Below, in pieces: positions 23,765 to 44,143 of a DNA stretch of 64,000 nt. The notes beneath the pieces were generated by a model. That model was not told the DNA's origin. It was given only the letters and a program-made list of their open reading frames with translations, and did no database searches. Both the position numbers and the translations under genes were made by a program. The stretch's first letter is position 1; each line of letters begins with the position of its first letter. This stretch comes from Dehalococcoidia bacterium (GTDB taxonomy: Bacteria; Chloroflexota; Dehalococcoidia; Plut-88900): positions 32,001 through 96,000 of the forward strand of contig CBDBLV010000003.1 of the NCBI GenBank assembly GCA_965207225.1, written 5' to 3'.

Positions 23765-23959
23765 AGACAGCGTCGCAGGCGCATCAATGCAGGGAGAACT
23801 GGCAGTGGGATTAACGTTGACTGTGACGCTTCGAGGTTGCCTCACCCGCGAGCTAAGTAATATGATTCAGATAGGTATCACCGAGTAAGCAGCGTGCGTT
23901 TGGCAAGCAAGGAACCGAATTGACAGAGGCGAGTTTGCACTGCGGGATCAGGTGTAGTT

Positions 23960-25127: not shown

Positions 25128-25178
25128 TTGACAATCGCCTCTCAATTCGGTCATGATACGAGTATGACGTGGTCATAC
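25128..25178 (+). promoter_or_regulatory. Sigma70-like promoter with palindromic operator
   Basis: TTGACA-N18-CATGAT followed by GTATGAC-gtg-GTCATAC. Confidence 0.6.
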
Positions 25179-25196
25179 AATAGGAGGTAGGAGAGA

Positions 25197-25394
25197 GTGC
25201 CCACGACCCGGAAGGCCATCACCTTCTCCATGCCTCCGGAGATGGCCGAGCAGGTGCAGCAGATGGTGAAGGAAGAGGGCCGCACCATGAGTGAGTTCCT
25301 CCGCGATGCCATCCGCCTATACATGGAGGAGCGGGAGTGGCTGCGGCAGGAGCGCCGCCAACGGGCGAATGCCCGCAGGAGCGACCAGGAATGA
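25197..25394 (+). CDS. CopG/ribbon-helix-helix regulator
   Basis: ITFSMPPEMAEQV...RTMSEFLRDAIRLY. Confidence 0.85.
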   Translation: MPTTRKAITFSMPPEMAEQVQQMVKEEGRTMSEFLRDAIRLYMEEREWLRQERRQRANARRSDQE

Positions 25395-25408
25395 GTAAGG
25401 AGGACGAC

Positions 25409-27073: not shown

Positions 27074-28557
27074 CGCAGCAAAGCATTGCCGGGCATGACC
27101 ACGATCTCCTTGACGAAGGACTCAATGAAGGCCCTGCGCTCCGTCAGTTCGCTCTTGTTGAGGAAGAGGCTCATGTCCTGGGCGTAGGCCGTGATGGTAT
27201 CCACGTCGTCCAGGACCTCCCTGCGCTGCGAGAGCATAGCCCTGGCCTCCTGCGCCGACATCTCCAGCTTCTCCTGCCGCTCCCGGTGGTCTCTGATGCG
27301 GGGCTTGAAGTCCTCGATGTCCAGGTCGGTGGTCTCCGCCAGGTCGTAGAGCCGTCCCAGCCTGCGCTTCACGTCATCAAGCTCCGACTCGATGGTCTCC
27401 AGCTTCTGCCGCTGCTCCCTGGCGATGCCGTCCATCTCCTCGTCTACCAGCTTCACCAGCTCCCGGATGTTGGAGTCGGTGAGCACATTCTGACGTATCT
27501 TCCCGACCACCATCTCCTCGAAGCGCCGTGCGTTGAGCCTGGGGGTCTCGCAGGCGTGCCTGCCTCGCTTCATGATGGACTGGCAGACGTAGTAGGCGTA
27601 CTTCCCGCTCTTGGCGTCCTGGCCGGAGAGCGCCCCGTCGCACGTCCTGCACCGGACCAGCCCGCTGAGCAGGTAGGTGCTTCCCACACGGCGCGGGTGC
27701 GCCTTCCTGGGGGCACGGGAGCGCATGCGCCTGTTCACTCTCTTGAACTGCGCTTTGGATATGATGCCGGGGAACGCTTTGTCCACCCTGACCGGCTCGT
27801 CCTTGCCCTTCCCGCCGACGCCCCAGAGAAGGGTTCCCGTGTAGGCTTCGTTGCGGAGGATGATGTGGACGCCGTTCTTGGACCAGAGCCTGCCGGTGGG
27901 GTTGGCGACGCCCTCGGCGTTGAGGGTCTGGGTGATGTCCAGGATGCCTCTGCCCGACTCGGCCATATTGAAGATGCGCTGCACCACGGGAGCGGTTGCG
28001 GGATCGGGCTCCAGGGTGGGGCGCTTCTTGGCCCCGTCCTGCACCATGCGCTTGCTGTAGCCGTAGGGCACCCGGCTGGCGACCCAGAAGCCGCGTGAGG
28101 CGGCCTCCCGCATCCCCCGCCGAACTTCTTCCGCCAAATTTTCGCTGTAGAACTCATCGACGCTCTCGATGATGGCCTCCATGAGCCTGCCGGTGGCGGA
28201 GTCGTCGGCGTGCTCGGTGATGGAGACGACGCGGACGCCCTTCCGTCTCAGCATGGACTTGAAGGCGACGGCGTGCTCCCGCTTGCGGGTGAAGCGACTG
28301 AATTTCCAGACCAGAATCTCGGCAAAAGGTGCCTCGGGCTTGCTGGCCTCGTCCAGCATCTTGCGGAACTCCGGGCGGTCGGCGATACGGCCGCTCTCAG
28401 CCTCGTCGATGTACTCCCTAGCCACGAAGTAGCTGTTCTTGTCGGCGTAGTCCCTGAGCGCCCTCAGCTGGGCCGCAACGGACAGGTCCACGTCCTGGCG
28501 GTCGCTGGACACCCTGGCGTACAGGGCCACCGGCGTGTTGTTATTCGTCTGTTTCAT
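26626..28557 (-). CDS. Large serine recombinase, type B
   Basis: YARVSS; CRTC..C..C zinc ribbon; the last ~115 aa read antisense into recombinase A. Confidence 0.95.
   Translation of the reverse strand: MKQTNNNTPVALYARVSSDRQDVDLSVAAQLRALRDYADKNSYFVAREYIDEAESGRIADRPEFRKMLDEASKPEAPFAEILVWKFSRFTRKREHAVAFKSMLRRKGVRVVSITEHADDSATGRLMEAIIESVDEFYSENLAEEVRRGMREAASRGFWVASRVPYGYSKRMVQDGAKKRPTLEPDPATAPVVQRIFNMAESGRGILDITQTLNAEGVANPTGRLWSKNGVHIILRNEAYTGTLLWGVGGKGKDEPVRVDKAFPGIISKAQFKRVNRRMRSRAPRKAHPRRVGSTYLLSGLVRCRTCDGALSGQDAKSGKYAYYVCQSIMKRGRHACETPRLNARRFEEMVVGKIRQNVLTDSNIRELVKLVDEEMDGIAREQRQKLETIESELDDVKRRLGRLYDLAETTDLDIEDFKPRIRDHRERQEKLEMSAQEARAMLSQRREVLDDVDTITAYAQDMSLFLNKSELTERRAFIESFVKEIVVMPGNALLRYSIPMPEDAPIGGRDAEEVALHSPVLSTVKSGGLDLTKSRTEADSLVTPSLGMGTVYVSVASFPATSMPSTKLRMSAFFSGIVPSFRKSRKSATYRAISSVSGSSTRLCSSWVSASSLAASNCSSRCLRDMMRGDKTSTVSSLVSMAS
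26950..27001. other. Head-to-head hybrid att site (A arm, core, B arm)
   Basis: GGTTCTTGATTTCGTCAAGTC-CAGCCCACCA-GACTTGACGGTAGACAGAACC. Confidence 0.85.
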
Positions 28558-28687
28558 GGGTGCGTTCCTCCTCCCAGACTACATACGGAGTCTTACTCAG
28601 TATCATGATGTATCCGGTCATTCATTGTCAAGGATCAGGAGTTTTGGAGGAGTTCCTTAGACGTAGAGCCAACTGATACTGACCTGC

Positions 28688-29971
28688 CTACCGGATCTTG
28701 CCAATCTCGTACTCCACGGCACTCAGTGACCCCCGCGCAGACTCCAGTTGTCGGGTAGATAGAAAGGCCCTTTGCTTCGCTTCGCTCCAAGTGCGCCTCC
28801 CCTTCTCAGAATAGAACAGAGCAACATTGTCGAGGCTTGCCACAAGCCTTTGGAAAGCCAGGTCGACGTCGCTGCATTCATACGGAGCAAGCGGCATGTT
28901 CGAAAACTCTTCTTCAATCTGGCTAATTCTAGTGCGTGATGCCTCGGTCCTCGACAAGAACACATCCTCCGAGACGATACCGTCTGTTAGCATGGCACTT
29001 TGTCCCTCTATCGCTGTAAGCAGCCCAGATATCTCGCATTTGAGCGAGAGGGCACTAGTGAGATACTCTGCCTTTGTCGCAGTGTTCTTAGCAACGTGTC
29101 GAGCCAGTTCTGTGTGCATTGAGTGCCAAGCAACGTATATGTGGTCTCCGATGTTTTCGCCGCACAAGTCTAACGGCCGATCTCGCTCGGGCAGATCAGG
29201 GTCAACCCAAAGACTGCGACAAACGGGGTTGCCTGTAGCGTAATCGTCGGCACTAGCATAGAGTGAAGTCCAGACGACCTTTGCCTCTGAGTCTCCCCAA
29301 CGGCCCTGGGTAAGGTGGTTCCGGTGGTATGTCCTCTTGGCACCGTCGTTCGTAAGCTGACGAACAATCGAAGCAACCTCAATTTTGTTCAAGGCTCCAT
29401 TCACAACCACTTTGAAGGAGCACCTCTTTGCCCCTTCGTGACTTACGTCCTTTTCTTCGAAGATGGTATACCGACTCACAGAAACGACCGGGGTCAAGAA
29501 GTCAACCAAAGTGGGTGCTGACGCAGAGTCAATCTTCTGGGACATCGGTATCAGGAGCTTGTAGCCTTTTCCTGTCGATATAGCTGTCTGTGAGTTTACA
29601 ACCTGCCAATAGATCTGACGATTGTCCACATCGCAAAGACACACTAGCACTGGCAGACAGTGATCAATCCAATAGTCAACGTGAGCACGGTCAGCTCTGA
29701 AAACGTAGGAATCGTCCTGTCGTTCGGTGAAGTAGCTCGGGCCGGACTTTAGTTGGATTCCTAGTAACCTGCCTGTAGCGTACTCAGCCTCAATTAATTC
29801 GGCATGAGCATCTATGCCATAGTCCGGAGCAGGTTGGGTTCTGAAGGCAAAACTGATGGCAACGAACTTGTCCATCGCCAATGCCACACCACGCTCCTCC
29901 ATTTGATGTGACTTGGGAGATTTCAAATCATCACCGCCCTTAGGAAAGCCTCTCCTATTGTCATCCAGCAT
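28688..29971 (-). CDS. DUF4365-type PD-(D/E)XK domain protein (possible defence)
   Basis: DYGIDAHAEL...IQLKSG...YW....PV; lower GC than flanks. Confidence 0.75.
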   Translation of the reverse strand: MLDDNRRGFPKGGDDLKSPKSHQMEERGVALAMDKFVAISFAFRTQPAPDYGIDAHAELIEAEYATGRLLGIQLKSGPSYFTERQDDSYVFRADRAHVDYWIDHCLPVLVCLCDVDNRQIYWQVVNSQTAISTGKGYKLLIPMSQKIDSASAPTLVDFLTPVVSVSRYTIFEEKDVSHEGAKRCSFKVVVNGALNKIEVASIVRQLTNDGAKRTYHRNHLTQGRWGDSEAKVVWTSLYASADDYATGNPVCRSLWVDPDLPERDRPLDLCGENIGDHIYVAWHSMHTELARHVAKNTATKAEYLTSALSLKCEISGLLTAIEGQSAMLTDGIVSEDVFLSRTEASRTRISQIEEEFSNMPLAPYECSDVDLAFQRLVASLDNVALFYSEKGRRTWSEAKQRAFLSTRQLESARGSLSAVEYEIGKIR

Positions 29972-30079
29972 ATCATCTGGTGGTATTGAAACGAACCTTG
30001 TACCATAGCTCGCTCCCCTAGACGCAGCCTACTCCTCAGACTTTACGAACTGCACTGCTAGGTGCCCGTAAGGGCGCGG

Positions 30080-30484
30080 TCACCCCTCCAGCGCCGACAG
30101 GAACCGGGGAGCGTTGAGGATTCTCACGCCCCGGTGTTCTCCAAGAGGCAGCAGATGCCGCCGGTCTCCGGTCACCAGGTAGTCTGCGGACGCCTCCACC
30201 GCGCACTCCAGGATGCGGTTGTCGGCGTGGCCTTCCCCGATGACCTCCGGCAGCCTGCGCGGGTAGATGACAGTGGCGGCTTTGCTCAACGTCCTGAGGG
30301 CCTCGGACGCGCGCTCCTCGTCCCAGTCGAACTTGCGTCGCAGTACCCCTGCGGCCTCCTCCAGGATGAAGGAGGACAGGTAGAGATCGAACCGTCCCCT
30401 GACGGCCAGTTCGAGCACCAGCCGCTCGTTGCCGGGGAAGTTCAGGCCCGAAACGATGACGTTGGTGTCGAGGACGACCCTCAT
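30080..30484 (-). CDS. PIN-domain toxin
   Basis: VVLDTNVIVS...DNRILECAV..ADYLVTGD. Confidence 0.9.
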   Translation of the reverse strand: MRVVLDTNVIVSGLNFPGNERLVLELAVRGRFDLYLSSFILEEAAGVLRRKFDWDEERASEALRTLSKAATVIYPRRLPEVIGEGHADNRILECAVEASADYLVTGDRRHLLPLGEHRGVRILNAPRFLSALEG

Positions 30485-30738
30485 GCACGGCCCGAGCCGA
30501 CCTCGGCCCGGTACTCTTCGACCAGATCGGCCACGTCCTCAGGGCCGATGCCCTTCTCCCTGGCCCGCTCCTCTCCGTACTGGAGAAGCTGCCGCCATTC
30601 CAACTCCTCGATGTAGCGCAGCAGCGCCTCTCGAAGGAACTCGCTCCTGGACTGCCCCTGCTGCTTCATCACAGCGTCCACCCGGTCCGCCATCTCCGGC
30701 GGCAGCGAGAAGGTGATAGTCTTGGTCGTTCGCGACAT
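30481..30738 (-). CDS. RHH antitoxin/regulator
   Basis: ITFSLPPEMA..SRSEFLREAL; overlaps the PIN start. Confidence 0.85.
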   Translation of the reverse strand: MSRTTKTITFSLPPEMADRVDAVMKQQGQSRSEFLREALLRYIEELEWRQLLQYGEERAREKGIGPEDVADLVEEYRAEVGSGRA

Positions 30739-30833
30739 GTGCGCTCCTTGTTAGTGAGTCTTACCACAATAATGCAACGACGGCTCAGCTCATGTCAATG
30801 TCAGATGGCCTGTAGAATAGCGTCTGCCCGCTC

Positions 30834-31268
30834 CTACGTGAACAGCTGCCATGTGAGCAGGCCGACGACCGCGAGCAGCACCACCACGGCCAGACCGAGC
30901 CTGACGGCCAACCGCCTCATACTTCTGCGGGCAGCCCGCTCGTTCTCGTACTCTTCCTCCATCTCCTCAAGCGCCTGCCGGTCGGCGGATGCGGCGTACA
31001 CCGCCTCGTGACGCTCCCGCTCCAACCCCTGCGCCCGCCGGTCCAGCTCCAACAGCCTCCGCCCAAGCTTCCCCTCCCGTGCGAGAGCCCGGCGCAGCAG
31101 CTCCTCGTCGCTCACCCGCTCCTGCCCCTCCATCCGCACGTAGACCCTCCGGCCATCCCTGCGCACCTCGACCTCTCCCCGCCGTATCATCCGGTCCAGG
31201 GTCGAGATGGAGACCTCCATCTCCCGCGCCGCCTCCGCCTTCGCCATCCAGCGCACCCGCTCAGTCAT
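30834..31268 (-). CDS. Excisionase-like HTH with TM helix (copy 2)
   Basis: Paralog of 23321..23764. Confidence 0.7.
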   Translation of the reverse strand: MTERVRWMAKAEAAREMEVSISTLDRMIRRGEVEVRRDGRRVYVRMEGQERVSDEELLRRALAREGKLGRRLLELDRRAQGLERERHEAVYAASADRQALEEMEEEYENERAARRSMRRLAVRLGLAVVVLLAVVGLLTWQLFT

Positions 31269-31698
31269 TGCTCTTGTCCTCGCACTGCGGCCTGCGCCGC
31301 CACCACCGGCTGAACAGGCGCAGCCCACCGCCCTCGGCGGCGTCCTGCTTCCGCGCCGCCTCCAGGGCCTCCACGCGCTCCGTCAGGTCATCCACGAGAT
31401 CCCTGAGATCATCCACAGCTTTGACCGTCCGCCGCATCCGCTCCTCCAGCCTGTCCAGGGGCGTCGTCCTCTCCGCATCTGGATCGTCCAGGCCGGCCAT
31501 GAACCGTTGCACGGCCAGGGCCATCTTCCCCGTCAAGCGCTCTTTGCTCAGCGCCAACGCCACCGTCTTCCGGTTCACCCCCAGGAGGGCCGCCGTCCTG
31601 CGCTGTCCCTCCCGCTGGACGAGGTACTCCACGACCCACTTCTGGTCGGGCTTGCCGTCTCCGGCCCTCGTTTTCATCTTCGACTTCCGAGAGGTCAT
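31261..31698 (-). CDS. HTH plus coiled-coil protein (copy 2)
   Basis: Paralog of 22861..23328. Confidence 0.75.
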   Translation of the reverse strand: MTSRKSKMKTRAGDGKPDQKWVVEYLVQREGQRRTAALLGVNRKTVALALSKERLTGKMALAVQRFMAGLDDPDAERTTPLDRLEERMRRTVKAVDDLRDLVDDLTERVEALEAARKQDAAEGGGLRLFSRWWRRRPQCEDKSND

Positions 31699-32245
31699 TT
31701 TCGTCCTCTACAGGGGTGGGCCGCATTTGCAATTCTCTGCGGAACCAGCCCTTGACAGCGACCGGTCACCATTTTCGGCCAAACCCCCGAAATGTTGCAT
31801 AAATCCAAACCTGCGTGGCCCGAAATGTCCGTTCCTACCCACCACCCCATTTCGCGTCATGCACCCCCACCTCAATTCCTGCAATATCCGGTGGGCCACC
31901 CTGGGCCGCGGACGCCGCCGAAGCGCCGATTTTGCTCCTCATAGACGCTTTAGACCCGCATCCGTACCTACATCCCCCATGATCGGCTGACCGGTCAGGG
32001 TGGTAAAAGTGCAATTCCGGCGTCTCCGGAGAGCGCCCTAACTTTAGCACAGCTTCTCCCCAACTTGCATTTTTTACCGTTGACCGGTCGAGGACGTTGC
32101 AGCCCCTTTTGTAGCTGAATTAGGGGAATATGACCGGTCTTGGGTATTTCAGGAGCCCGGCGGATGTACAGCTTGTACCGTTTTGCGGCTCCCAGACGGC
32201 AGGGAGGGCAGATAGCGTTGCATCGACGCTATCTATGTGCCACGG
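31699..32245. promoter_or_regulatory. Conserved cis region (copy 2, inverted)
   Basis: GACCGGTC at 31760, 31989, 32082, 32132. Confidence 0.6.
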
Positions 32246-33975
32246 TCATCGCCCCCTTCTATAGGATGCCTCTACAGGACTCTGCCGCATCCGGTGGTAG
32301 AGACTGTCCCACTGGTAGGCGCTCAGCCCTGACAGCGCCAGTCGGGGGGAGGACGGCTCCCACAAGGGACGCCAGGACGCCCCCAGTATCCCCCTGGGTG
32401 ACAGGACGGGGATGCAGGACACCAGGACGGGCAGCGACATCCGGTGCATCCGGGCGGCGGTATTCACGTAGGTCTCCTCCACTTCCTCGGTGTCTACCAC
32501 GAACAGCGTGACGGGGTACGGGGGCAGGTCATCTTTGTGCTCATTCGACCAGTAGTAGTCTTCGTAGGGCTCCAGGCGGGCGATCACTCCCCTAGGGTGG
32601 CGGGCGCGAAGCTCGTGCTCGAGGTAGAAGGGCACGGGATGGCCCCCGGCGAGAAGGTGCCCAACGGCGTCGGGGGCGATGGCCGACTGTCCCCAGTTGT
32701 AGGCCCGGTCGGACCTGGCGGTGGGGACAAGCCATACAAGCTCACTGTCGGGATCGGAACGGGTCTCAGATGCAAGCTGCGAGAGGAACCAAGTGATGCC
32801 GTCCGTGTGCCTCGTCTGCCTCGCCCACGTCTCGATGCGGTGGCCTACGTGCCGGGGGCGGCCCTCTTTGTCGGTGGTGCGCTCCGTGCTCCAGATGCCC
32901 CTCGTGGTGGGCAGCTCGGCCCGGTCCCGGTGGGTGACGTAGCGTATGCCCTCGTCGGACAGGGTGTAGCGCACCTCGCCCCGTTTGCCGTGACGTTCCA
33001 CCAGTCCCCAGGTCTTCACAAGGCTGCGCATCATCTGGCTGACGCGTCCCTCGGAGACGCCGAGCCAGGTGGCCAGGTGCTCGCGGGGGATCATCGGGTG
33101 GTCGGTGATCAGGTCCAGCGTCCGCTTCTCCGAAGGGCTGAGGCCGAAGGCGGGTGACCCCCCCACCAGGCGCTCAGGTTGAGGGAGTGAAGCTCGCTTC
33201 CGCTCCGGCGACGCCGTGAGGGATGTTCGTCTTCTCCCCGGCTTGCCCCGGGAGATTACCCGCTCCAGCGTCAGGTACGAACGCCCGGACAGCCCCGTCG
33301 TCTCCTGCCAGACGCGGCGGTTCCGTCTTTCCAGGGCGGTCCTGGACTCCACGGCGATGAAGAAGTCCGTCAGATCGACCCGTTCGCAGAAGCTCCCCGT
33401 CTGCCTCCGCTCCCACACGCTGGGCACCAGGATGAGAATCACGTCGGGGCGGCGGCTGGAGTCGTAGTGCGACAAGGCTCGCAGCCGGTCGTGGAGGGAG
33501 CGCCTGAGCAGGGCCAGGCCCTGGCGGACGATACCTAAGTCTCGCCCATCGTGGAGGGTGATGACGGCGTCGAAGCGGCCCTTGCGGTGAAACTCCACGC
33601 GGGATCGGAGCCCGTCCGTGCCGGGGGACATGGTGGCGGCGAGGCGGTAGACGGAGGCCACCGCGTCCATCCTGCGGATGAGCAGCGTGAGCCACTCCCT
33701 GGACATGGGTAGGCCCGCACGAAGTCCGAGGGCGTGTCGTAGTCCACGAAGTCGGCGGTCTCCCTGATGCCCTGCGGCGTCAGGCAGTATCTTGCGCTCG
33801 ACGGCAGATGCACGGTGCCGTGGGTGGCCTTCCCCACGATGCCGTCGGACAGCAGCTCGGACAGATAGCGGTGGACGGTTGCGTGGGGCTCGCCTAGGAT
33901 GAGCGCCAGATCCGTCGATTCGATGAACGGCATCCGGCTGAGGGCGTCGAGCAACCGTCGGTCTGACAAAGACAT
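32246..33975 (-). pseudogene. Replication-relaxation-like protein (copy 2) with a 1-bp frameshift
   Basis: TACCCATG here versus TATCCCATG/TACCCCATG in paralogs at ~33708; the N-terminus MSLSDRRLL is in another frame. Confidence 0.75.
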
Positions 33976-34224
33976 GCGTTGAGCGTAACGAGGAAGCGCA
34001 TCGGTGGGCAACCGATACGTGTCAGCGGCGGTGTGGCGACTCTGGCGGGCATTCCACTTAACATCAACGAGGTTTTTCTTCTTCCGACAGGTGGTGGACC
34101 CGGGTACTTTGCAAAACGTTGGTGCAAGGGGTTTTGTAGTAGGACACAGGGCTCTGTGCGGTTGCTGCCAAGTAGTCTCACTGCTATAGTGAGGCTGCCT
34201 TAGTCCTCGTGCCGGAGAAAGGGA

Positions 34225-35100
34225 ATGGAATTCGTAGACAGAATTGTGGAAGGAAATTGCCAGCAGGCCCTTAGGGACGTGCCTGACAATTCGGTTGATC
34301 TTATATTCACTTCGCCGCCTTACGCTGACCAGAGGAAAAGCACCTACGGCGGAATAAAGCCTGACGATTACGTGGAATGGTTTCTTCCCAAGGCTGACCA
34401 ATTCTACCGCGTCCTGAAGCCGTCCGGTACGTTCATCCTCAACATCAAAGAGCGCGTCGTCAATGGAGAGCGTCACACCTACGTGATGGAGTTGGTGCTT
34501 GAGATGCGTAGGCGAGGTTGGCTATGGACTGAAGAGTTCATCTGGCATAAGAAGAACTCATACCCCGGCAAATGGCCCAATCGGTTCAGGGACAACTGGG
34601 AACGCCTTATACAATTCAACAAGCGAAAAGACTTCAACATGTACCAGGAAGAGGTGATGATACCCGTAGGAACCTGGGCAGAGCATCGCCTCTCAAATCT
34701 CAGTGATACAGACCAGATCAGAGACGAATCCAAGGTGGGCAGCGGGTTTGGCAAGAACGTATCCAATTGGCTTGGTCGAGACAAGGTGTATCCCAATAAC
34801 GTCCTCCACATGGCCACTGAGTCTTCAAACAAGAACCACAGTGCCGTCTTTCCCGTTGCGTTGCCCACCTGGTTCATCAAGCTTTTCACCCAACCCGAGG
34901 ACCTAGTGCTGGACCCTTTCCTCGGTTCCGGAAGCACGGCGGTGGCCGCTCTCAACTTGGGCAGACACTTCCTCGGCATCGAAATCAACAGCGAGTACGC
35001 GGAGTTGGCCAGGGAACGGGTGCTAAGGGCGGGGGACGCCATACCCTCGGTCAACGGGGCTGAGATGGCGGATGAGGCAATGCAGGGGGTCGCTGGATGA
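34225..35100 (+). CDS. Beta-class N4/N6 DNA methyltransferase
   Basis: TSPPY precedes DPFLGSGST. Confidence 0.9.
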   Translation: MEFVDRIVEGNCQQALRDVPDNSVDLIFTSPPYADQRKSTYGGIKPDDYVEWFLPKADQFYRVLKPSGTFILNIKERVVNGERHTYVMELVLEMRRRGWLWTEEFIWHKKNSYPGKWPNRFRDNWERLIQFNKRKDFNMYQEEVMIPVGTWAEHRLSNLSDTDQIRDESKVGSGFGKNVSNWLGRDKVYPNNVLHMATESSNKNHSAVFPVALPTWFIKLFTQPEDLVLDPFLGSGSTAVAALNLGRHFLGIEINSEYAELARERVLRAGDAIPSVNGAEMADEAMQGVAG

Positions 35101-35858
35101 AATCGCTGGATTTCGACGTTGTGCGGCGGTACGTCAACGAACACATCGGCGTCTTCCATCAGGGGCGACTCGACACCTTGAACAAGCTGGATCTGAAGCG
35201 AGCGCTCCAGAAGAACCCCTATCTGTTCAGGGCCAAAAATGTCTTGACCGCATCGGAGATGATCAACGGCATCATGGATGCGTTCCTGTCCTCCTCCGAA
35301 GAAGAGCGCTTCGGCACATTCCTTGAGGGGCTTGCCGTATTTGTAGCTGAACAGACAACTGGGGGACACAAGTCGGCAGCGTCCGGCATCGACTTGGAGT
35401 TTAGCAACCAAGGCGTCCACTACCTGGTCTCAGTGAAGTCCGGCCCCAATTGGGGTAACGCAGCCCAACAGAATCAATTGGAGCGCGAGTTGAGGGACGG
35501 TGTGGCGAGGCTGCAACAGCGAAGGCCCGGGGCAAATGTACAATCCGTCCTGGGCATATGTTACGGCCGCGTTCGTACGCGATATCTCCGTGGCTACTTG
35601 AAACTAGTTGGACAGAATTTCTGGTATTTCATCAGCGAGAATAAGGACTTGTATACGGAGATCATCGAGCCAATCGGATACCGTGCTAAGGAACACAACG
35701 AGGAATACGAGCGCAGCAAGGCTCAAGTGACCAATCGTTTGACCGCAGCCTTTATCGGGGATTACTGCTATCCCTCCGGCGAAATTGATTGGCCTAAGCT
35801 AGTTTATGCGGCCTGCGGCAACTACGACTTGGATAGATTCTTCGGTCGTTCGAGATAG
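35097..35858 (+). CDS. Type II restriction endonuclease (PmeII-like)
   Basis: KNPYLF...GIDLEF...VKSGPNWGN; overlaps the MTase stop. Confidence 0.75.
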   Translation: MKSLDFDVVRRYVNEHIGVFHQGRLDTLNKLDLKRALQKNPYLFRAKNVLTASEMINGIMDAFLSSSEEERFGTFLEGLAVFVAEQTTGGHKSAASGIDLEFSNQGVHYLVSVKSGPNWGNAAQQNQLERELRDGVARLQQRRPGANVQSVLGICYGRVRTRYLRGYLKLVGQNFWYFISENKDLYTEIIEPIGYRAKEHNEEYERSKAQVTNRLTAAFIGDYCYPSGEIDWPKLVYAACGNYDLDRFFGRSR

Positions 35859-35880
35859 CTGAACACACCCTCGTGAGCAT

Positions 35881-35989
35881 CTAGAGTCCCATCCACAATT
35901 CGAAGATAGTTCTGCCTACCGTCAACTCAGGCCCACCAGACTTGATAAAATCAAGAACCTTCGCGTTGAAGCTCGTGTTGGACCTGTAG
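35881..35989. other. Tail-to-tail hybrid att site (35908-35959) with both orphan recombinase 3' ends
   Basis: AGTTCTGCCTACCGTCAACTC-AGGCCCACCA-GACTTGATAAAATCAAGAACC; + strand DLIKSRTFALKLVLDL*, - strand ELTVGRTIFELWMGL*. Confidence 0.85.
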
Positions 35990-36055
35990 GCTGAGCCTTG
36001 TCCTGTTCCCGTTGAGAGAGGGCCCCCCAAGGAGAGGTGAGGAAAGGCTGGACGT

Positions 36056-38464
36056 TCACATCTCGTCCCGTCCCTCGGTTTCACTCGCCGGCATGCGGTA
36101 GCCTACACGCGGCTCGGTGAAGATGTACTTCGGGACGTTGGCGTCGTCGCCCAGCCTGCGACGCAGGTTTCTCATCGTGGCGCGCAGCAACTGGACAGCG
36201 CGGGTGTATGTTGCTCCCCAGACCTTTTCCAGGATCTGGTCATGAGTCAAAACTCGCCCGGCGCTGATCGAAAGCTCGAAGAGCAGCTTGTACTCGGTCG
36301 GAGACAACTGCGCCCGATGGCCGGCTACAGTCACGGCTCGGTCTGCGTAGTCGATAACCAACTCTCCCAGACGATAGGGCTGACGCCGCGTCGCCTTGCC
36401 AGTTGACCGCCGCTTCCGTAATGAAGCTTCGACTCTCGCAGTTAATTCGGTCGCGGAGAAAGGCTTGACGATATAGTCGTCGGCACCCATTTTGAGAGCC
36501 TTCACAACATTCTCTTCCTGATCGTTCGCGGACAGAAAGATGACCGGCACGTCGGACAACTCGCGGACGCGACGCATCAGTTCGAGCCCGCTGGTCCCCG
36601 GAACCATCAGGTCCATCAAGACCAGGTGAGGATGCTCCAACTCCAGGATATGCATCATCTCATCCGGGTTCCCCGTCCCGAAAGTCGTGTGTCCATGGTC
36701 ATTGAGTATGGTTCGAAGAAGCCGCAAGACTTGAGGCTCGTCGTCCACAGCAAGAATCTTCGTTCCATCATGCGGCGTGATGACTTGAACGTCATTCGCT
36801 GACTTCTGAACGGCGGCCATGGGAATCGTAAAGGTGATCCTGGTCCCCTGTCCCTCTCCACCGCTTTCGGCCAGGATGCGACCTCCATGCGCCTCTACAA
36901 TACCCTTGCAGATCGCGAGCCCCAGGCCCTCTCCCGCGACCCGCTGCTCGCGACCATCGCCCTCAATCCGAGAGAACTTCTTGAACAGATTGGGCAACTC
37001 GTCGGCAGGTATTCCTCTGCCTCCGTCTGTTACGGAGAACGCGACATAAACGTCTTCCCGCGATGCACTCACCCTGATCGTTGTTGAATCTCCTGAGTAC
37101 TTGGATGCGTTGGACAGTAGGTTGTTCAGCACTTGACCGATACGCTGGCTATCCGCCGCGATCTGCGGAAGATCGGGCGGGAGTTCGACTTCGATGGGAT
37201 TCCGTCGCCCTTGGCGAACAAACGCCATTCTCGCCTCGTCGACAATCTCCTCCACATCCGTAGGTTCGAGAGTTACTGACAATGCCCCCGCTTCTATCTG
37301 CGTCATGTCGAGAAGGTTGTTGACGAGGTCGCTCAGATGGTCGGACTGCCCATCTATCATTCGGAAGTACTGGAGCATTTCGGAAATGGTGGGGGGACTG
37401 GATCTAGCCAACACGATGCCAGTACAGCCTTTGATTGTGGTCAGCGGTGTTCGCAACTCATGGCTCACCATGGCGAGGAACTCGCGGCGCAGACGTTCGA
37501 CCTCCTCCACCGGAGTCATATCTTGTACTACGGCAACAGCGGAGACAATCTCCCCGTCATCCGAGTAGATCGGCGTGGCGTTGACGAGAGTGGTCACCTT
37601 ACGCCCATCGGGGAGATCGAACTGGATTTCTTCGGCCCGCACTACTTCGCCGCGGTCCAGCGCCCGGGCCAGGGGGCGCTCGTGGCCTTCGTATTTCTCG
37701 CCATCCGACCGGCGGTAAATCGCCACCTCGTGATAGCGCACGAGTGTGGAGCCGGGCTCCGGCGAGACACCCAGGATGCGTTCTGCCTCTCTGTTGACCG
37801 ACGCGAAGGTCCTTGTCTTGGCATCGACTACCAGGACTCCCACCGGCGAGGAATCCACTAACGCAGCCAACCGACGCCTCTCGGTCTCAACCTGGTCCCT
37901 GGTTTGCAGCTCTTGCTCGTACTTGAGAGCGTTGACTATTGAGATGGCGGCCTGTGACGCGAACATCACGAGGATATCTTCGTCTTCTTCAGAGAACTCC
38001 TTCCCACCTTCCTTCTCGGTAAGGTAGATGTTTCCGACAGGCTCGTCATGGTGGCGGATCGGCACCCCGAGGAAGGACTTCATCGGCGGGTGATTCTCAG
38101 GGAAGCCGGCCGAGCGGGAGTGCTGGCTGAGATCTGCGAGTCGTAACGGCTCTTGTATTTCGTTCAGGTATCCGAGGAGACCCAACCCTTGCGGTGGATC
38201 TCCCAGCCGACTGCGTTCTTCGGGAGTGATGCCAGAGGTGATGAACTCTCGAATTCGTCCAGCGCTGTCGAACACCCCTACCGCGCCATAACGGGCGTTG
38301 GTTAATGAGCAAGCGCCGTCAACGATTTCCTGAAGCACGGCGTCGAAGTCCAGAACCTCGGTGATGCGGCGACCGACCTCGCTCACCCTGGTGAAGCGAG
38401 CACGAAGGGTCTCGATCTCCAGCCTGAGGGCATCGTGCTTCTTCGCGGAACCATCTCGGTTCAT
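36056..38464 (-). CDS. Hybrid sensor: GAF-PAS-histidine kinase-receiver-OmpR/KdpE wHTH
   Basis: SHELRTPL; NLLSNA.KY; GLGL; DDE..D..KPF; C-terminal TEPRVGYR. Confidence 0.9.
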   Translation of the reverse strand: MNRDGSAKKHDALRLEIETLRARFTRVSEVGRRITEVLDFDAVLQEIVDGACSLTNARYGAVGVFDSAGRIREFITSGITPEERSRLGDPPQGLGLLGYLNEIQEPLRLADLSQHSRSAGFPENHPPMKSFLGVPIRHHDEPVGNIYLTEKEGGKEFSEEDEDILVMFASQAAISIVNALKYEQELQTRDQVETERRRLAALVDSSPVGVLVVDAKTRTFASVNREAERILGVSPEPGSTLVRYHEVAIYRRSDGEKYEGHERPLARALDRGEVVRAEEIQFDLPDGRKVTTLVNATPIYSDDGEIVSAVAVVQDMTPVEEVERLRREFLAMVSHELRTPLTTIKGCTGIVLARSSPPTISEMLQYFRMIDGQSDHLSDLVNNLLDMTQIEAGALSVTLEPTDVEEIVDEARMAFVRQGRRNPIEVELPPDLPQIAADSQRIGQVLNNLLSNASKYSGDSTTIRVSASREDVYVAFSVTDGGRGIPADELPNLFKKFSRIEGDGREQRVAGEGLGLAICKGIVEAHGGRILAESGGEGQGTRITFTIPMAAVQKSANDVQVITPHDGTKILAVDDEPQVLRLLRTILNDHGHTTFGTGNPDEMMHILELEHPHLVLMDLMVPGTSGLELMRRVRELSDVPVIFLSANDQEENVVKALKMGADDYIVKPFSATELTARVEASLRKRRSTGKATRRQPYRLGELVIDYADRAVTVAGHRAQLSPTEYKLLFELSISAGRVLTHDQILEKVWGATYTRAVQLLRATMRNLRRRLGDDANVPKYIFTEPRVGYRMPASETEGRDEM

Positions 38465-38559
38465 GTTGCCACCCGCCAGACAATCTTGAGCAACGAGGGG
38501 ATAAGAATACCGCCCATTGTACCGCAGACGTTGTCAAGGTCTGCTGACCGTCAGAAATC

Positions 38560-38610
38560 TTTGATGGTTCTTTGATGGAAACGGGGCTGTTTTTGATGGG
38601 CATTTGATAC
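38560..38610 (+). promoter_or_regulatory. Four TTTGAT(GG) direct repeats, candidate OmpR-family operator
   Basis: Copies at 38560, 38571, 38592, 38603 (spacing 11/21/11). Confidence 0.65.
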
Positions 38611-38655
38611 GAGCCGCCTATGGTGGCCGGTATCACTATCTGTAGGAGGTGTGAG

Positions 38656-39480
38656 ATGAAAAACGGAATGCTCAAACTTGCTGGATGGGTCACGGCTTTC
38701 GCGTTAATTGCGGTCGCCGCGTGGGCCTCGCCCACAGCAACTGCACAAACGCCTCCGGAGGCGCAGAGTACGAATTCCGGAGCGTATTTCCTCGGAGGAG
38801 ATGGTCAGGAACGTTCATTATCTGTAGGTGATGTGGTTACACAGACACAGCGCCTTGCTGACGGCACATGCGGATCCCACGACTTTACCGTTGGGGGACG
38901 TGGGTACGTAAAGTCCATAAGTGTGGTATTTGACCAAAGCCGCTGCGCCATGGTCGTCGCTGAGATTGTCTCGGACCCTACGACCCAGGCACAGGAACCC
39001 TTTATTCAGGCCAAGTCCGAAGTGACCAGTCGTTCGACACAATCGTCGTCTGAGGCGAAGTGGCGCGTTCGAGCTGTAGGTGAGTGGCGTGGCTTTGCCA
39101 ACGAAGAATTAACACAGGCCACGGCAACAATAAAATTTAAGACATCGAGCCTCACCGGTGGCGGCCCACTTTTTGATAGATACATTGCTCCTCCTGACTG
39201 TTGGGGTAACTACAACCCGCCGACTTTCAACTGGACTGAGGACTCCTGCACGAGTCTCGGCTCCGCCTCAGACCCAGGATTGGTGTCATCAACAATTTCC
39301 GGAAAATTCCATCACGCTGTTTTTAGGTGGATGCATCATGAAATCAGATCGACGGCCAAAGCTCGTGGATGGGTATCCATACCTGCCGCGTTCGATTGGG
39401 ACTGTCGGTCAATAGGCCATGTGTCGTGGCCCTCCACCTTCCATTGCGAGAGATTGTGGAATCTTCTCAGTTGGCCATAA
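38656..39480 (+). CDS. Secreted hypothetical protein
   Basis: AGGAGGT RBS; signal peptide; several Cys residues. Confidence 0.65.
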   Translation: MKNGMLKLAGWVTAFALIAVAAWASPTATAQTPPEAQSTNSGAYFLGGDGQERSLSVGDVVTQTQRLADGTCGSHDFTVGGRGYVKSISVVFDQSRCAMVVAEIVSDPTTQAQEPFIQAKSEVTSRSTQSSSEAKWRVRAVGEWRGFANEELTQATATIKFKTSSLTGGGPLFDRYIAPPDCWGNYNPPTFNWTEDSCTSLGSASDPGLVSSTISGKFHHAVFRWMHHEIRSTAKARGWVSIPAAFDWDCRSIGHVSWPSTFHCERLWNLLSWP

Positions 39481-40145
39481 GTCCTGTGGCTAACGGATAT
39501 GCGCCGAATCATCCAGCCAAGCCGGGCAGTGTCTCGCCAACGTCTATGCCCGGCTCCCGGCAAGTCTGGCCGATCTAGAGGAGTGATTCTGCGAAACATC
39601 AGTTAAACAACTGATCGTGACTTCCGGATCTCTTGGTTCCATCAACAATGCACTTAAAGAGAACACTTTCACATTTGGCGGATAAGGCTACACGGCTCCC
39701 TTTATTTGTCAATGCAATATTGGCGGATGAAATATGGAGGAATCGTGAATTTCAAGCGTTTCTACTGCTCATGCTTCTCTTATTGGTCGTGTTACTGAGT
39801 TTGATCGGGGGATGTTTACCCATCCCGTTTCCGCGGGATGATGTCATTATCGGGTGACTTCACAATCAGTTGTTTCGATTACGCCCACAGCCACTCTGGC
39901 CGGTTCGGTCGAATCCACATCGGCAAGCTCTCACTGGTCTTCGTCCTTTGCGCGCTCTGGCTTTTCCCGCTCAATGTCAAAATTGACAATGTGAACGCGC
40001 CTGACTTGTACTCAAGCTCCCCTTCAACCAGCTTCCGTTGCGTGCTCATGCCTGCGATGCAAAGGCAACAGAAAACTGAGACACTCGTGGACAGTGGGCC
40101 TGGACTCATCCCCAAACACTTAATTGCCTGAGGACCGCGAAACGT

Positions 40146-43112
40146 GTGTCGTTGTTCAATCTCACCCTGCCTCAAGCTAAGGGAGCACCCGCGCCAACCA
40201 ACAACCTCACGCCGGTGCCTTCGCCAACACCAACACCCGCGCCGACCGACACCCCCACGCCTGTCCCTTCGGCTATGCCAACGCCGTCGCCACCCAGCCC
40301 AATAGCGGGTTTGGAGCGCGGCGCGTGGCTGGAAGAGAACAGGCCGGCATTGGCCAACCAGGTCAAGGCGCTGTCCTGGGTCTCAGACGGCGTTGACGAT
40401 ACGGAGCGCGAGGCTGCTGAAGTCTTGATTGCTATGGCCTTATGGCATCGCGACGTGTTTTACAACCTGACGAGCAAGCGATGGGTCCAGAACCACATCA
40501 CCACACACGAAGCTGCCACCATTGACGAGGTTTACTCAATTGCCAATTACGCCCCTGCACTAGCAATCGCTATGCTGGAGAAATCCTGGGTGAAGGATGA
40601 CATCACCAGGGATGAAGCCGTGGTAATTGACCGTCTGGAAAGCATCGTAAGAGCCGAGGACGAGTCCCTGCAACAGCAGGTAATTCGCAAGGTCTTCGAA
40701 ATTCTGGACATGCCATTCCTAGGGCCAATCGACAATTGTTAGAAACTGGTTTCAAATCGCTGTAAGAGGCGAAACAGGGAAACCGCCAGCGTGTGAGCCA
40801 TACCTAGAAACGGAGGCTTACATGAATCGGTACGAGCTAAGCGCAACGCAGTGGCGCGAGATCAAGGGGTTCCTTCCGGGGCGACCCGGTTCAGTAGGCG
40901 TGACCGCAAAGGACAACCGCAGCTTCGTCAACCGCGTCCTTTGGGTGCTGCGCAGCGGTGCTCACTGGAAGGACCGGCCGCCGAGGTACGGGAACTGGAA
41001 GAGCGCACATAAGCGGTTTACGCGCTGGGCAAGAGACGGCATCTGGGAGCGTATCTTCAAGGTGCTGCTGGCAGACCCAAAGAACGCCTGGGTCATGATC
41101 GATTCCACCATCGTCCGTGCCCATCAGCAGGCGATCTGCGGAAAAGGGGGGCCAAGAACCAGGCTCTGGGGCGTTCCAGAGGAGGACTGAGCACCAAGAT
41201 TCATATGTTGACTGACGCCGTAGGCCAGCCTATGCGCTTCATCCTGACCGGAGGGCAGGTGGCAGACTCCCCAAAGGGCATACCGTTGTTGACCGGTATT
41301 GACGCCACCCATGTGATCGCCGACAAGGGATATGACAGCGACAAAATCCTGGCCTATATCCAGGCTCAAGGAGCGGCTGCGGTCATACCGTCAACGTCAA
41401 ACCGTAAGACCCAAAGAGAGTACAGCCGGGAACTGTACCGGGAGCGTAACCTGATCGAACGAGCGTTCAACAGGCTCGAGCAGTGGCGCAGGATCGCAAC
41501 ACGCTATGACCGCAGAAGCCTTGACTTCCTCGCAGCGCTACATCTGACTGCAGCCGTCACATGGAGCACATGATTGTCGATTGGCCCTAGACACCGTTGA
41601 AAGTGCCGACGCTTCGGCGGTACGCTCACTGTAAAGTCTTGAGGACGCAGGGTCGGCTGAGTTTCTGGAGCTTATGAACCACCCCACACTCAGTGACGGC
41701 ATTGACGATGAAGAGGCAAGAATTGTTGTCTTGCTGGGCAGCACCAACAGGAATATGCCGGAACGTGTGCCTGCCCTGCTGGACGGGACCAGCGTTTCCA
41801 AGAGGAACGCATCATCAACCTGCCTCACTCTGGTGAAGTGTTGCTGGCAATCATCCGGTTCCACGACCACACCGGGCCCAACATGGATTACCTGGAGCAC
41901 GCGGTGCTGCACCATGAAGGTTCCATGGGCGAGCCGCTGCCTACCAACTACGTGGCATGGTACTTTGTGGACTACATTTCCGGCGGATGGCACGAGGGCA
42001 CTCACATAGCGTCGAATCCGGAGCGCGACCCCGCCCACGGCGAGTATTGCCGCGCGCCGAGGCACGCGGCCCATGAAACAGGCCACTACTACTGGACGGA
42101 TTCTCAGGCATGGATTAGCGAAGGTGCAGCGGATATGCTCGTCATACTCTCCGAGAATGCACGCGCCGGGCGACCACTGGTTCACAACCGGGAGCAATGC
42201 ACGTTGTTCAACACCATCAGTGAGGTTGCCGATGCAGAAAAAGGCAGCGACGCGTATGACTGCTCCTACCGGTTGGGACAGCGACTGTTCCTTGACCTGT
42301 ACCATGTCTTCGGTGAAGCAGCTTTCCGGCAGGCATTCCGTAGCCTCTACTTGAAACGATTACGTGATGACCCCACCGACGATTGCGAAGGCACCCAGCT
42401 GGGCATTTGCCACGTGGAATCGACCTTCAAGTCTGGTGTGTCGGACGAGGTCGTTGCAAAGGTTGACAAGGTCATCGGCCACTGGTTCTATGGAAGAACG
42501 GGTACCCACGAAGGGGACCGGGCGGTCTTGGGGGCGTTGTACCGCGAGATGGGAGGGAGCAGCTGGACCAACAACGCCAACTGGCTGAGCGACGCCCACA
42601 TCGGGGAGTGGCATGGCGTTGCTACTGATGCCGACGGCCGTGTTATTGAACTGAATCTCGAAGACAACCCATTGTCGGGTCAGATCCCGCCCGGATTGGG
42701 CAATCTTGCCAACTTGAGGGAACTGCTGCTCGGTTACAACCACTTGCGTGGGCCGATGCCGCCGGAATTGGGCAGCCTCACCCAATTGACCCGATTGGAA
42801 TTGGACCACAACGATCTGACCGGGGCGATACCGTCCTCCCTGGGCAGCCTCACCCAATTGACCCGGTTGGAATTGAACGACAACGGTCTGACAGGAGATA
42901 TACCTTCCTCCTTTGGAAACCTCACTCACCTAACCCGATTGGAACTCGATGGCAATAGTTTGTCTGGAAATATACGCACTTCTCTGAGCAACCTAACGGC
43001 GTTAAGGTTCCTGAGGGTGGCCTTCGGAAACCGTTTTTCAGGTTGCATACCTTTGATGTTGAACACCGTAGCGGACAACGACCTTGCGAACTTGGGTTTG
43101 ACAGATTGCTGA
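40146..43112 (+). pseudogene. Surface protein with HExxH and LRR domains, disrupted by IS5, a stop codon and a frameshift
   Basis: ILDMPFL|IS|DTVESADA frame continues across the IS; TAA ~41632; AHETGH and LxGxIPxxLGxL LRRs in 41838..43112. Confidence 0.75.
40723..41586 (+). mobile_element. IS5-family insertion sequence; transposase split over 40822..41190 and ~41150..41573
   Basis: Perfect IR GGCCAATCGACAAT/ATTGTCGATTGGCC flanked by CTAG on both sides; AAAAGGGGGG frameshift motif; IDST, ADKGYD and RIATRYD motifs. Confidence 0.9.
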
Positions 43113-43666
43113 ATTAGCAGCCTATCGTGGATTGACTTGAAGCCTGTCGGGACAATACCGCAGGAAAAAATAACAAAGTACGTCACGTCGAGACTCTAAT
43201 CATCAGGGGAGGTTGAGGGCGAGTTGGCTAGTAGGCTCCTGGGGACGGGCTTCGACGCTGAAACCTGCCAAGCTCTATCGTTTATGCCTTACGCTCTTCG
43301 CAAGCCTAGACCTGATTCTCATACGGAGAAGTTTCGTACTAAGAGCACTACAACGCATACAGCTAGTACACCACTAGACAAGTACGCAATCCAATCGTCG
43401 TCGGCGTGTAGCCAGCTCCACTGAAACCCAAGTGCCCTCTCGCAGTAGTGTAAGCACGCCTTCAGGACCAGAGCAGTGATCGCGATGCCAAGCAAGCCGA
43501 CGCACAGCCGGTCCAATGCGTCCATCAGCGTACACCTTGTTCGCTCACGATGCCTCTATCCGTGATGAGAAAGCTAAATGGGTCGATGGCCTGACTTGGG
43601 TAACTCATTGATGGTGTGTTCGATGTCAGCTTGGGCTTGTCCTCGACGATTTTGTATTCGTATTTG

Positions 43667-44131
43667 TCATCGTCCGGCCCCAATTGGTCTCGACCCCCGT
43701 TGCCAATTCTCTTGGCTCTCTTGCACTTGAACATTCTCACCGAGTTCCTCAGAGATGCGCTTCACCCCGGACTCGATCTCGCACGCCCAAATGACCCGCC
43801 ACTTCCATCCAAGACTATCCAGAGCAGAGCGTGCCTGAGCATCCCTTTTCGCATTTCTTTCGATCTTCGTCGTCCAGTAATCCGTGTTGCTCTTGGGCAT
43901 CCTTGATCTCTTGCATCCATGCCAGTGCCAGAAGCACCCATGGACAAACAACGCGACTCGATGGCGAGGGAAGACCAAGTCAGGACAGCCGGGGAGATCA
44001 GCACGGTGGAGTCGAAAGCGATGTCCCGCCCTATGAAGAGCCTTTCTCACTTCCATCTCGGGTCTAGTGTCCCGTGACTTCACCTTGGCCATAATCGCGC
44101 TTCGCTCGCGGCTGTCTATCTGATCGGCCAA
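43667..44131 (-). CDS. vsr: Very short patch repair endonuclease
   Basis: RS.IMAKV.SRDT.PE...PDLV...FVHGCFWH.H. Confidence 0.92.
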   Translation of the reverse strand: MADQIDSRERSAIMAKVKSRDTRPEMEVRKALHRAGHRFRLHRADLPGCPDLVFPRHRVALFVHGCFWHWHGCKRSRMPKSNTDYWTTKIERNAKRDAQARSALDSLGWKWRVIWACEIESGVKRISEELGENVQVQESQENWQRGSRPIGAGR

Positions 44132-44143
44132 GAGTTAAGCCCC

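Follow-up and report, generated by a model that had tools for sequence, protein, structure and literature searches.

The integrases of phage Mx8 and of SSV are tyrosine recombinases whose protein is altered (Mx8) or split (SSV) by integration, and canonical phages that rely on large serine recombinases (LSRs) carry their attachment site, attP, beside the recombinase gene and not inside it. According to the part of the Islander paper that bears on them, the genes for Mx8 IntP/IntX and SSV-type integrases extend across attP (PMC4383910). As for LSRs, the sections of McMurdie et al. 2011 drawn on here describe DsiB (~540 amino acids), which is encoded at the edge of Dehalococcoides islands specific for ssrA, by a gene whose 3' end always overlaps attL and whose stop codon lies outside the island, even when this means overlapping the adjacent island or ssrA itself (PMC3146451). 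The same sections suggest that dsiB might attain full function only when it is carried on the circle or lies next to an island that supplies its 3' fragment (PMC3146451). Here, we analyse a 64,000-nucleotide stretch of a Dehalococcoidia genome (the window) and, within it, the spacer at 35881-35989 (junction S) together with two convergent pairs of LSR genes (A1/B1 and A2/B2) on either side. To our minds, and with a probability of roughly 85%, the spacer is a hybrid attachment (att) site at which two stacked LSR islands abut, the LSR genes cross their own att site and insertion swaps their last 16 residues.

A parallel with Mx8 drawn in a preliminary description of this DNA holds for the intragenic design of attP, which SSV shares too, but is an analogy only, as the window proteins are serine recombinases and hence differ from the Mx8 and SSV enzymes in family and chemistry. 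DsiB and the window LSRs, compared by description only, are alike in that the gene overlaps the att site at the island end and stops outside the island, and in both settings tandem mobilizable islands sit on one RNA-gene target (PMC3146451). They differ in that DsiB, as described there, inserts into the T-loop of a single transfer-messenger RNA (tmRNA) gene, ssrA, whereas crossover here falls at the acceptor end/CCA in a wide range of tRNA genes and at the sites of other islands. Nor do the sections used mention, for DsiB, the convergent fused genes, the conserved tail peptide, the two classes of polarity and the double orphan tails that occur here (PMC3146451). These also assign DsiB to a six-gene integration module that includes the small recombinase DsiA and RecF-like, ParB-like and Mom-like genes (PMC3146451); no second Resolvase-domain gene was found by Pfam among the 35 larger open reading frames (ORFs) of the window islands that were scanned. 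Arrays of integrative and mobilizable elements at tRNA genes, as portrayed in the relevant part of the Islander paper (PMC4383910), resemble the window stack in placing islands on one target and in leaving decayed remnants. Serine-family integrases were, by a statement in the same part, not known to target tRNA genes as of 2014 (PMC4383910), whereas in this genome serine-family LSRs are found at seven of 50 tRNA/tmRNA genes.

Anatomy of the spacer and of the att sites

Spacer S consists of two 16-codon tails placed back to back, which flank a 52-bp att-type site (35908-35959) with its centre, CC, at 35933/35934. One orphan tail (a') is encoded on the plus strand (35939-35989) and reads DLIKSRTFALKLVLDL up to its stop codon; the other (b') is encoded on the minus strand (35881-35931) and reads PELTVGRTIFELWMGL, again up to a stop, and the minus-strand ORF 35881..36084 terminates in ...KVLDFIKSGGPELTVGRTIFELWMGL. 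Both are in frame with an LSR gene through the common core GCCCACCA. Thus, the plus strand from 35936 to 35989 runs from CCA CCA GAC TTG ATA to CTG TAG (PP-DLIKSRTFALKLVLDL), preceded by GGC if the core is read one codon further upstream (G-PP-DLIKSRTFALKLVLDL), and each tail stays in frame because the codons CCA CCA (TGG TGG on the opposite strand) are common to both. On re-reading the sequence, the tails, their frames, coordinates and peptides all proved to be as the preliminary description had given them.

The genes that lack these tails lie at the two joints J1 and J2. A1 is conserved up to ...VLDFVKSSPP and A2 up to ...VLDFVQFSPP, and each then runs on for 30 read-through codons that begin DLTVDRTG; in B1 and B2, conservation extends to ...VLSTVKSGG, after which come ~115 read-through codons (LDLTKSRTE...) antisense to A. 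At J1, A1 and B1 each continue into the antisense of the other, and the convergent overlaps, which had been claimed before and are indeed present, measure 448 bp each (26626-27073 and 54501-54948). The spacer site (35909-35959) recurs in inverted orientation at J1 (26950-27000) and J2 (54825-54875), with 78% and 75% identity, respectively, over 51 nt. A scan of 26300-36300 for terminators and promoters returned three terminator-like sites against 6.5 expected, none of them at J1 or S, and no terminator or promoter pattern at the joints. RNA folds of the sites (z = -3.5, -1.8 and -1.4) merely mirror the palindromes.

All four proteins (A1, B1, A2, B2) carry the Pfam domains PF00239 Resolvase, PF07508 Recombinase and PF13408 Zn_ribbon_recom (E 1e-11 to 1e-33). 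An AlphaFold2 model of P0095, a natural A homologue with an a' tail (77-row alignment), has a mean predicted local distance difference test score (pLDDT) of 88.1 and long helices at 340-424; it resembles, by Foldseek, the full-length LSRs of SPbeta type (9y66/9dxd), Bxb1 (9iu2), PhiC31 and LI (4kis) with E values of 5e-17 to 7e-12 and displays the LSR fold including the coiled-coil insertion in the zinc-ribbon domain. With LI/A118, Bxb1, PhiC31 and SPbeta, the window enzymes and sites share the domain set, the fold, pseudo-palindromic sites of ~50 bp and a central dinucleotide that sets polarity.

Every site is composed of two 21-bp arms around a 10-bp centre, xxGCCCACCA, which makes it a near-palindrome with an asymmetric centre. 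Two arm types exist: H1 (GGTTCTTGATTTCGTCAAGTC) ends the A genes and H2 (GGTTCTGyCTACCGTCAAsTC) ends the B genes, so that J1 and J2 read H1, centre, reverse complement of H2, and S reads H2, centre, reverse complement of H1. On the sense strand the centre is GCCCACCA in A genes, which we call PP type after the encoded residues, and TGGTGGGC in B genes (GG type), and it is this asymmetric centre that sets the polarity of a site. Rejoining the left of J with the right of S in silico yields an H1 palindrome that is almost perfect, in other words an A gene ending in an a' tail, and the left of S with the right of J yields an H2 palindrome, a B gene with a b' tail; the two palindromes are the expected circle-form sites of the islands E_A2 and E_B1 (Table 1). 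The site anatomy, along with the genome-wide recurrence set out below, supports the earlier proposal that the att core lies inside the recombinase ORFs and that recombination exchanges their C-termini.

The core copies the 3' end of tRNA, namely positions 71-72, the discriminator and the encoded CCA. The crossover dinucleotide is the CC of GCC/CACCA, ~17 codons ahead of the LSR stop, and a tRNA-specific T in AGCTCC/ACCA at a tRNA-Ala joint places crossover within CC-ACCA. At five intact tRNA genes (Ile-gat, Ala-tgc, Lys-ctt, Val-gac and Met-cat), a converging B-type gene reads the tRNA in antisense, giving tails such as GG-RYWTRTSDL... and GG-AEGIRTPDPLLAKQVLSQLSY, and two B-like genes likewise read into the tRNA genes for Val-tac and Gln-ttg; all tRNA genes so occupied (the seven of 50 mentioned above, as annotated by ARAGORN) remain intact.

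The halves of the sites can be told apart by a GAAC motif. Its distance from the centre is 22 nt in 59 element-borne halves and 16 nt in eight chromosomal halves, which comprise all five tRNA halves and three others, and 13 halves have GAAC at neither distance. This spacing marks element halves as P-type and tRNA halves as B-type, in line with LI integrase, where the zinc-ribbon motif lies 5 bp further inward in attB than in attP according to the part of the source that deals with it (PMC3783163); the outer motif of the chromosomal half is nearer the centre by 6 bp here and by 5 bp in LI. Canonical LSRs, as the same source has it, recombine only attP with attB unless a directionality factor is present (PMC3783163), whereas 19 of the 40 sites found in this genome join two element-type halves (P/P). 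Judged from these products, the attP x attB-only rule would not account for 19 of the 40 sites, and pairings other than attP x attB must therefore have occurred. This is the less expected point of our analysis, as the canonical pairing rule does not predict P/P.

Table 1. Joints, recombinase genes, islands and remnants in the window (C3 coordinates refer to the contig; all others to the window).
Feature	Position	Strand	Description
Junction S	35881..35989	.	joint of island E_B1 (left) with island E_A2 (right)
Junction J1	26950..27001	.	A1 half-site H1, core CAGCCCACCA and reverse complement of B1 half-site H2; centre 26975/26976
Junction J2	54825..54876	.	same type as J1, between A2 and B2; centre 54850/54851
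LSR gene A1	25337..27073	+	PP type; likely start ATG 25409, by comparison with A2
LSR gene B1	26626..28557	-	GG type; read-through antisense to A1
LSR gene A2	53284..54948	+	PP type; 91% identical to A1
LSR gene B2	54501..56456	-	GG type; 93% identical to B1
Island E_A1	15690..26975	+	~11.3 kb; begins at decayed a' tail 15690-15725; methylase, NgoMIV-type endonuclease, RCC1-repeat protein, Replic_Relax 20535-22301, A1
Island E_B1	26976..35933	-	8.96 kb; B1, DUF4365 28688-29971, Replic_Relax 32246-33706, N6/N4 methylase 34225-35100, EcoO109I-type endonuclease 35097-35858
Island E_A2	35934..54850	+	18.9 kb; a' tail, GAF-PAS histidine kinase/response regulator 36056-38464, leucine-rich repeat (LRR) protein, Vsr + DUF4928 + C5 methylase 43667-46167, Replic_Relax 46294-47775, UvrD-type helicase 49181-51859, SIMPL, A2
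Island E_B2	J2 to C3:106863-106893 (window ~74863, beyond the window)	-	b' tail and B-type chromosomal half at far end
Remnant a' half-site and tail	9973..10023	+	VLIKSRTFAISFKLEV, then stop; fused to end of 2839-residue ORF
Decayed S-type site	14150..14211	+	frameshifted a' tail 14160-14211 (...FTLCFKLEL, then stop)

Junction grammar in the genome and its relatives

Across the genome (five contigs, 4.03 Mb), tblastn identified 37 loci, 33 of which belong to the A/B LSR family (13 A-type, 20 B-type or B-like), and the att site types of the spacer and its flanking joints recur at 40 places. The arrangement is thus not a chance one. Genome-wide, there are 13 a'-type and 15 b'-type tails, and the joints comprise seven of type J, six of type S with b'/a' tails and three of type S with c'/a' tails. 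Polarity is strict: every a' tail comes after a core in GCCCACCA (PP) orientation, every b' tail after one in TGGTGGGCC (GG) orientation, and c' tails likewise come after GG. Since the polarity of the core fixes orientation, PP-type genes point outward, opposite the tail end of their island, and GG-type genes do the reverse. Integrated in this way, an island carries the body of its LSR gene at one end and the last 16 codons at the other, and a tail of the native type can come only from the excised circle or from a stack neighbour in the same orientation. Circularisation of E_B1 would join B1 to the b' tail, and that of E_A2 would join A2 to the a' tail.

What happens at a joint depends on the order of its partners. 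Where PP follows PP, or GG follows GG, the neighbour's tail completes the gene; PP followed by GG produces J, at which neither gene keeps its tail and each runs into the other; GG followed by PP produces S with its two orphan tails; and an island next to the chromosome has its gene read into a tRNA gene or other DNA. Given the fixed polarity, A-then-B must result in joints of the J1/J2 type and B-then-A in spacer S. This consistency also bears out the assignment of a' to the PP-type A genes and of b' to the GG-type B genes, with far-end tails for 10 of 13 A and six of 13 B genes. More precisely, the a' tail upstream on the same strand lies at 10.9-20.6 kb for 10 A genes and at 51 kb for one, and two A genes have no plausible one; among 13 B genes, the b' tail lies at 8.9-20.0 kb for six and at 27-29 kb for two, one has as its nearest the tail of another island and four have none.

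Stacks anchored at tRNA genes are seen on contig C5, where five islands occupy ~78 kb (1.912-1.990 Mb) in the order tRNA-Met, B, gamma-type, A, B, A, and where a second one reads tRNA-Val, B, A. All junction types are represented in the tRNA-Met stack, among them a gamma-type gene that the b' tail of its neighbour completes. On contig C1, a B gene adjoins tRNA-Ala(tgc) 4 kb from the contig end, and this tRNA gene might be the anchor of the C3 stack. The DNA that comes after the tmRNA gene (C1:198772-199125) is unrelated, and the islands use tRNA genes and one another as targets. The preliminary description treats the arrangement as two recombinase genes inserted into each other; it is instead one instance of a general grammar of joints in island stacks, which usually sit at tRNA 3' ends, and the joints can equally have come from successive insertions at one site.

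Homologues were sampled as the 120 best relatives of A2 (86-91% identical) and the 120 best of B2. In 118 of the 120 A2 relatives a VLDFxxxxPP core is followed by a varying tail, which is antisense of a B-type gene in 40, a b-type tail in PP polarity in 33, an a' tail in eight (five of exactly 16 residues) and something other in 37, and the remaining two are cut at the core. The B2 relatives read antisense A in 33 cases and antisense-tRNA-like sequence in 31, four carry a b' tail, 44 fall into other classes and eight have no GG core that was found; by eye, the latter two groups hold five further antisense-A tails and six c' tails (RTFRWEVLI, then stop). Going by residue spacing, the half joined is P-type in 77 and B-type in 21 of the 120 A2 relatives and P-type in 46 and B-type in 40 of the 120 B2 relatives. 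The right-hand join is to an H2-type (B-family) half in 73 of the 120 A2 relatives, and A-type islands may, from this bias, prefer B-family sites.

Further afield, 3607 proteins matched at E <= 1e-30 among 1.84 billion cluster representatives. Of the best 150 of these, 78 have at least 480 residues, and ~25 of these 78 (by eye) end in antisense-tRNA-like sequence, e.g. ...WTRTNNPAINSRMLHH, which shows that the design reaches relatives at 31-56% identity. Related genomes with a match at E <= 1e-50 number 13 of 41 (the source genome included), among them five of eight other genomes of the same genus, and for one B relative (P0381) the source is given as a Chloroflexi metagenome-assembled genome. 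In the read-through tails of P0077 and P0088 a second ...GPP-N[YL]TKSRTF... occurs ~33 residues past the first core; this marks another att core closely followed by an a' tail, so that a very short remnant lies between two sites. A metagenome scan for relatives returned 13 loci, none of them an obvious circular element, and one was a 42-kb contig with an A gene carrying a b-type tail.

The tail peptide and rival readings

The preliminary description had asked whether RTFxLxFxL tails are conserved in homologues, and tails are indeed conserved there (a' in eight of 120 A2 relatives, b' in four of 120 B2 relatives) as in the genome. The a' motif of the PP-type gene A is DL[IT]KSRTF-x-L-x-[FLI]-x-L-x-[LV] (RTFxLxFxLxL), the b' motif of the GG-type gene B is ..T[IV][GD]RT[IV]FE[LM].[LM]G.. 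(RT[IV]FELWxGxL) and the c' motif is ..LRTFRWE[VI]PI, each ending at a stop codon. All 13 intact a' tails in the genome differ in DNA and all 13 keep 16 codons plus the stop (TAG or TAA). Codons 8, 10, 12, 14 and 16 have an invariant T as second base and so specify F, L/I, F/L/I, L and L/V, whereas their first and third bases are variable (0.4-1.3 bits). The codons in between change freely (A/E/Q/R/S/T, then A/C/K/R/S/T, then K/R/V, then A/D/E), and the 30 nt past the stop are unrelated between copies (1.74 bits per site). Stop and motif are likewise retained among the copies of the b' and c' tails, and all tail types end in an aliphatic residue. This pattern of substitution suggests that selection acts on an amphipathic, strand-like a' peptide and not on the DNA. 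As integrated orphan tails join no gene, selection must act on the circularised or tandem-completed gene, and the 16-residue tail, being translated and selected, would serve the enzyme that is produced from circles or tandem joints and could influence how stable this enzyme is, how it contacts a partner or how efficiently it integrates.

What the tail does, if anything, can be seen in two ways. On the one hand, the swap of tails may be a recombination-state switch, in which enzymes with a native tail (from the circle) differ in activity, directionality or half-life from those with a read-through tail (integrated) and convergent antisense transcription further silences both genes at J. In favour of this are the conserved peptide with its fixed stop, alternate hydrophobic positions and aliphatic end, its recurrence in homologues, the lack of any terminator-like site between the convergent genes at J joints and, in the sections of McMurdie et al. 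consulted, the same possibility raised for dsiB (PMC3146451). However, both tails remain undocked in AlphaFold2 monomers, and integrated copies with arbitrary tails keep intact ORFs of 540-650 codons, including all 14 genes at the seven J joints, which fits enzymes that work without the tail or else recent arrival; we regard such a switch as unlikely. On the other hand, attP may overlap a dispensable, disordered C-terminal extension so that the tail is a neutral by-product with no function of its own. The pLDDT is indeed below 50 over nearly all of the last 27-35 residues (residues 482-506 and 511-516 in P0095; 519-545 in the GG-type protein C5:379072-380709, a b'-tailed protein modelled from 80 rows with a mean pLDDT of 82.6) against ~90 for the body; the folded enzyme stops ~40 residues ahead of the C-terminus; and Pfam domains and matches to solved LSRs stop before the core. 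From these models we infer that the tail would not be part of the folded catalytic or DNA-binding core. Non-native tails moreover prevail, with 110 of 120 A relatives lacking an a' tail and 108 of 120 B relatives not being classed b'. Yet neutral sequence would not keep what the 13 diverged a' tails all keep beside randomised DNA (length, stop and hydrophobic periodicity) or the motifs of b' and c', and for this reason a tail devoid of function seems to us rather doubtful. The regulatory half of the preliminary description is nonetheless plausible, and its core idea was anticipated by the suggestion of McMurdie et al., that is, it has already been proposed in print for a related system (DsiB).

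As to how J and S came about, two routes may be envisaged. A circular island could recombine with a still unbroken site inside a resident gene (P/P x P/P), or successive islands could insert at the joint beside a chromosomal target (P/P x B/P). The former, a direct attP x attP insertion of one island into the other's intragenic site, as the preliminary description implies, gains from in silico excision, which restores an intact A1 with a' tail when E_B1 is removed (J1 x S) and an intact B2 with b' tail when E_A2 is removed (S x J2), and from the 73 A relatives whose joins suggest a preference for B-family sites. The same order results, though, if newcomers use the joint beside the target, tRNA-anchored stacks of this kind do exist on C5 and both routes alike need a pairing other than attP x attB; we give direct insertion somewhat less than even odds. 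Either route would produce the observed order and depart from the attP x attB rule, and from the products the two are inseparable here. That the convergent fused genes are instead chimeric assembly joins between repeated recombinase genes seems most improbable. Although this family occurs in many copies and contigs from short reads end at the core, the seven J joints lie in one five-contig genome with differing flanks and genes that are 78-95% identical rather than identical, the same read-through tails recur in 40 and 33 of 120 independent public homologues, and two relatives (G008, G011) have convergent pairs at adjoining coordinates.

Several points weigh against our reading of the spacer as a hybrid site between stacked islands. 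No tail site lies at a plausible distance for three of 13 A and seven of 13 B genes, some of which are at contig ends or beside deletions, and for E_A1 the left boundary is drawn from a tail that has decayed. An extra assumption, namely neighbouring PP-type islands that have b-type tails, is needed for the 33 of 120 A homologues with a b-type tail in PP polarity and for one A copy (C5:1069858). The AlphaFold2 models of P0095 and C5:379072-380709 lend no structural support to a role for the tail. Finally, no excised circle or empty site was seen, so current mobility stays putative. Logan contigs of four runs over 25000-37500 break at the att core (end at 35917, restart at 35935), and a J1-S joint is not among the joints listed for them, which gives no verdict on excision. 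In the search for empty sites among related genomes, the chromosomal flank right of E_B2 found a match in 13 of 13 genomes scored, mostly via a repeat, and no clean unoccupied site was obtained. A congener (G001, C1:2760-2772 kb, L032) has the same joint of b' tail and chromosomal half with no LSR or tRNA gene up to 40 kb upstream, and there the E_B2 flank (C3:106.8-107.2 kb) lies 1.2 kb from DNA that is on another contig here (C2:101.9-111.9 kb); this joint is either an old, genus-wide fossil or a sign of att-mediated rearrangement.

Islands, cargo and significance

The window is a stack of at least four LSR-driven, putatively mobilizable islands that carry a Replic_Relax relaxase-like gene together with restriction-modification and defence cargo. 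Its order is remnants (9973, 14150, 15690), E_A1, J1, E_B1, S, E_A2, J2, E_B2, and Pfam on the 35 ORFs assigns a single LSR and a single PF13814 Replic_Relax protein to every one of the four islands; mating-pore genes were not detected by Pfam among the islands' long ORFs, the only ones covered. Besides the spacer, the window contains three decayed a' tails (Table 1), and at the leftmost of them G+C falls from ~0.70 to 0.59. The 2839-residue ORF (1460-10023) that precedes this remnant is repeat-rich with one fn3 match and takes its stop from the truncated a' half-site (GAGTAC/TGATAAAATCAAGAACC). Apparently, a deletion fused it to the island remnant, and it may be cargo of an island to the left (B gene C3:24870-26427).

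A module of ~3.3 kb (Replic_Relax plus small ORFs) is present in three copies of 82-92% identity, one per island, at 20496-23764, 30833-34050 (inverted) and 46202-49171, and a fourth Replic_Relax gene (59007-61046) lies in E_B2. Window positions 1-203 and 63798-64000 are direct repeats, 92% identical, that probably reflect another repeated island segment. Restriction and defence genes dominate the cargo (14500-15600, 16324-18530, 34225-35858 and 43667-46167); they include a GmrSD-C/Excalibur protein, a methylase with an NgoMIV-type endonuclease, a methylase with an EcoO109I-type endonuclease, and Vsr with DUF4928 and a C5 methylase.

Taken as a whole, the family is a clear and abundant example of a design already noted and not a new principle, and in the open-access library that we searched there was no paper on an LSR tail peptide conserved across attP or on P/P joints. 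Pushed furthest, the tail might be a sensor of state (needed for integration, a C-terminal degron or a partner contact), the head-on joint J might disarm both islands and these LSRs might routinely recombine element sites outside attP x attB, a combination that we consider speculative and quite unlikely. Two points stand out nevertheless, the conserved tail that would be complete only on the circle and the non-canonical pairings of sites. LSRs are valued as genome-engineering tools for their simple directionality rule, and this family departs from the textbook by keeping attP inside its own gene, targeting many tRNA 3' ends and leaving P/P half-site products. From the stacks one also sees how uncultured Chloroflexi-type genomes build up cargo for defence and restriction-modification. 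If the tail is functional, it would provide the integrase with a built-in means to tell the free from the integrated element, as has been proposed for DsiB.

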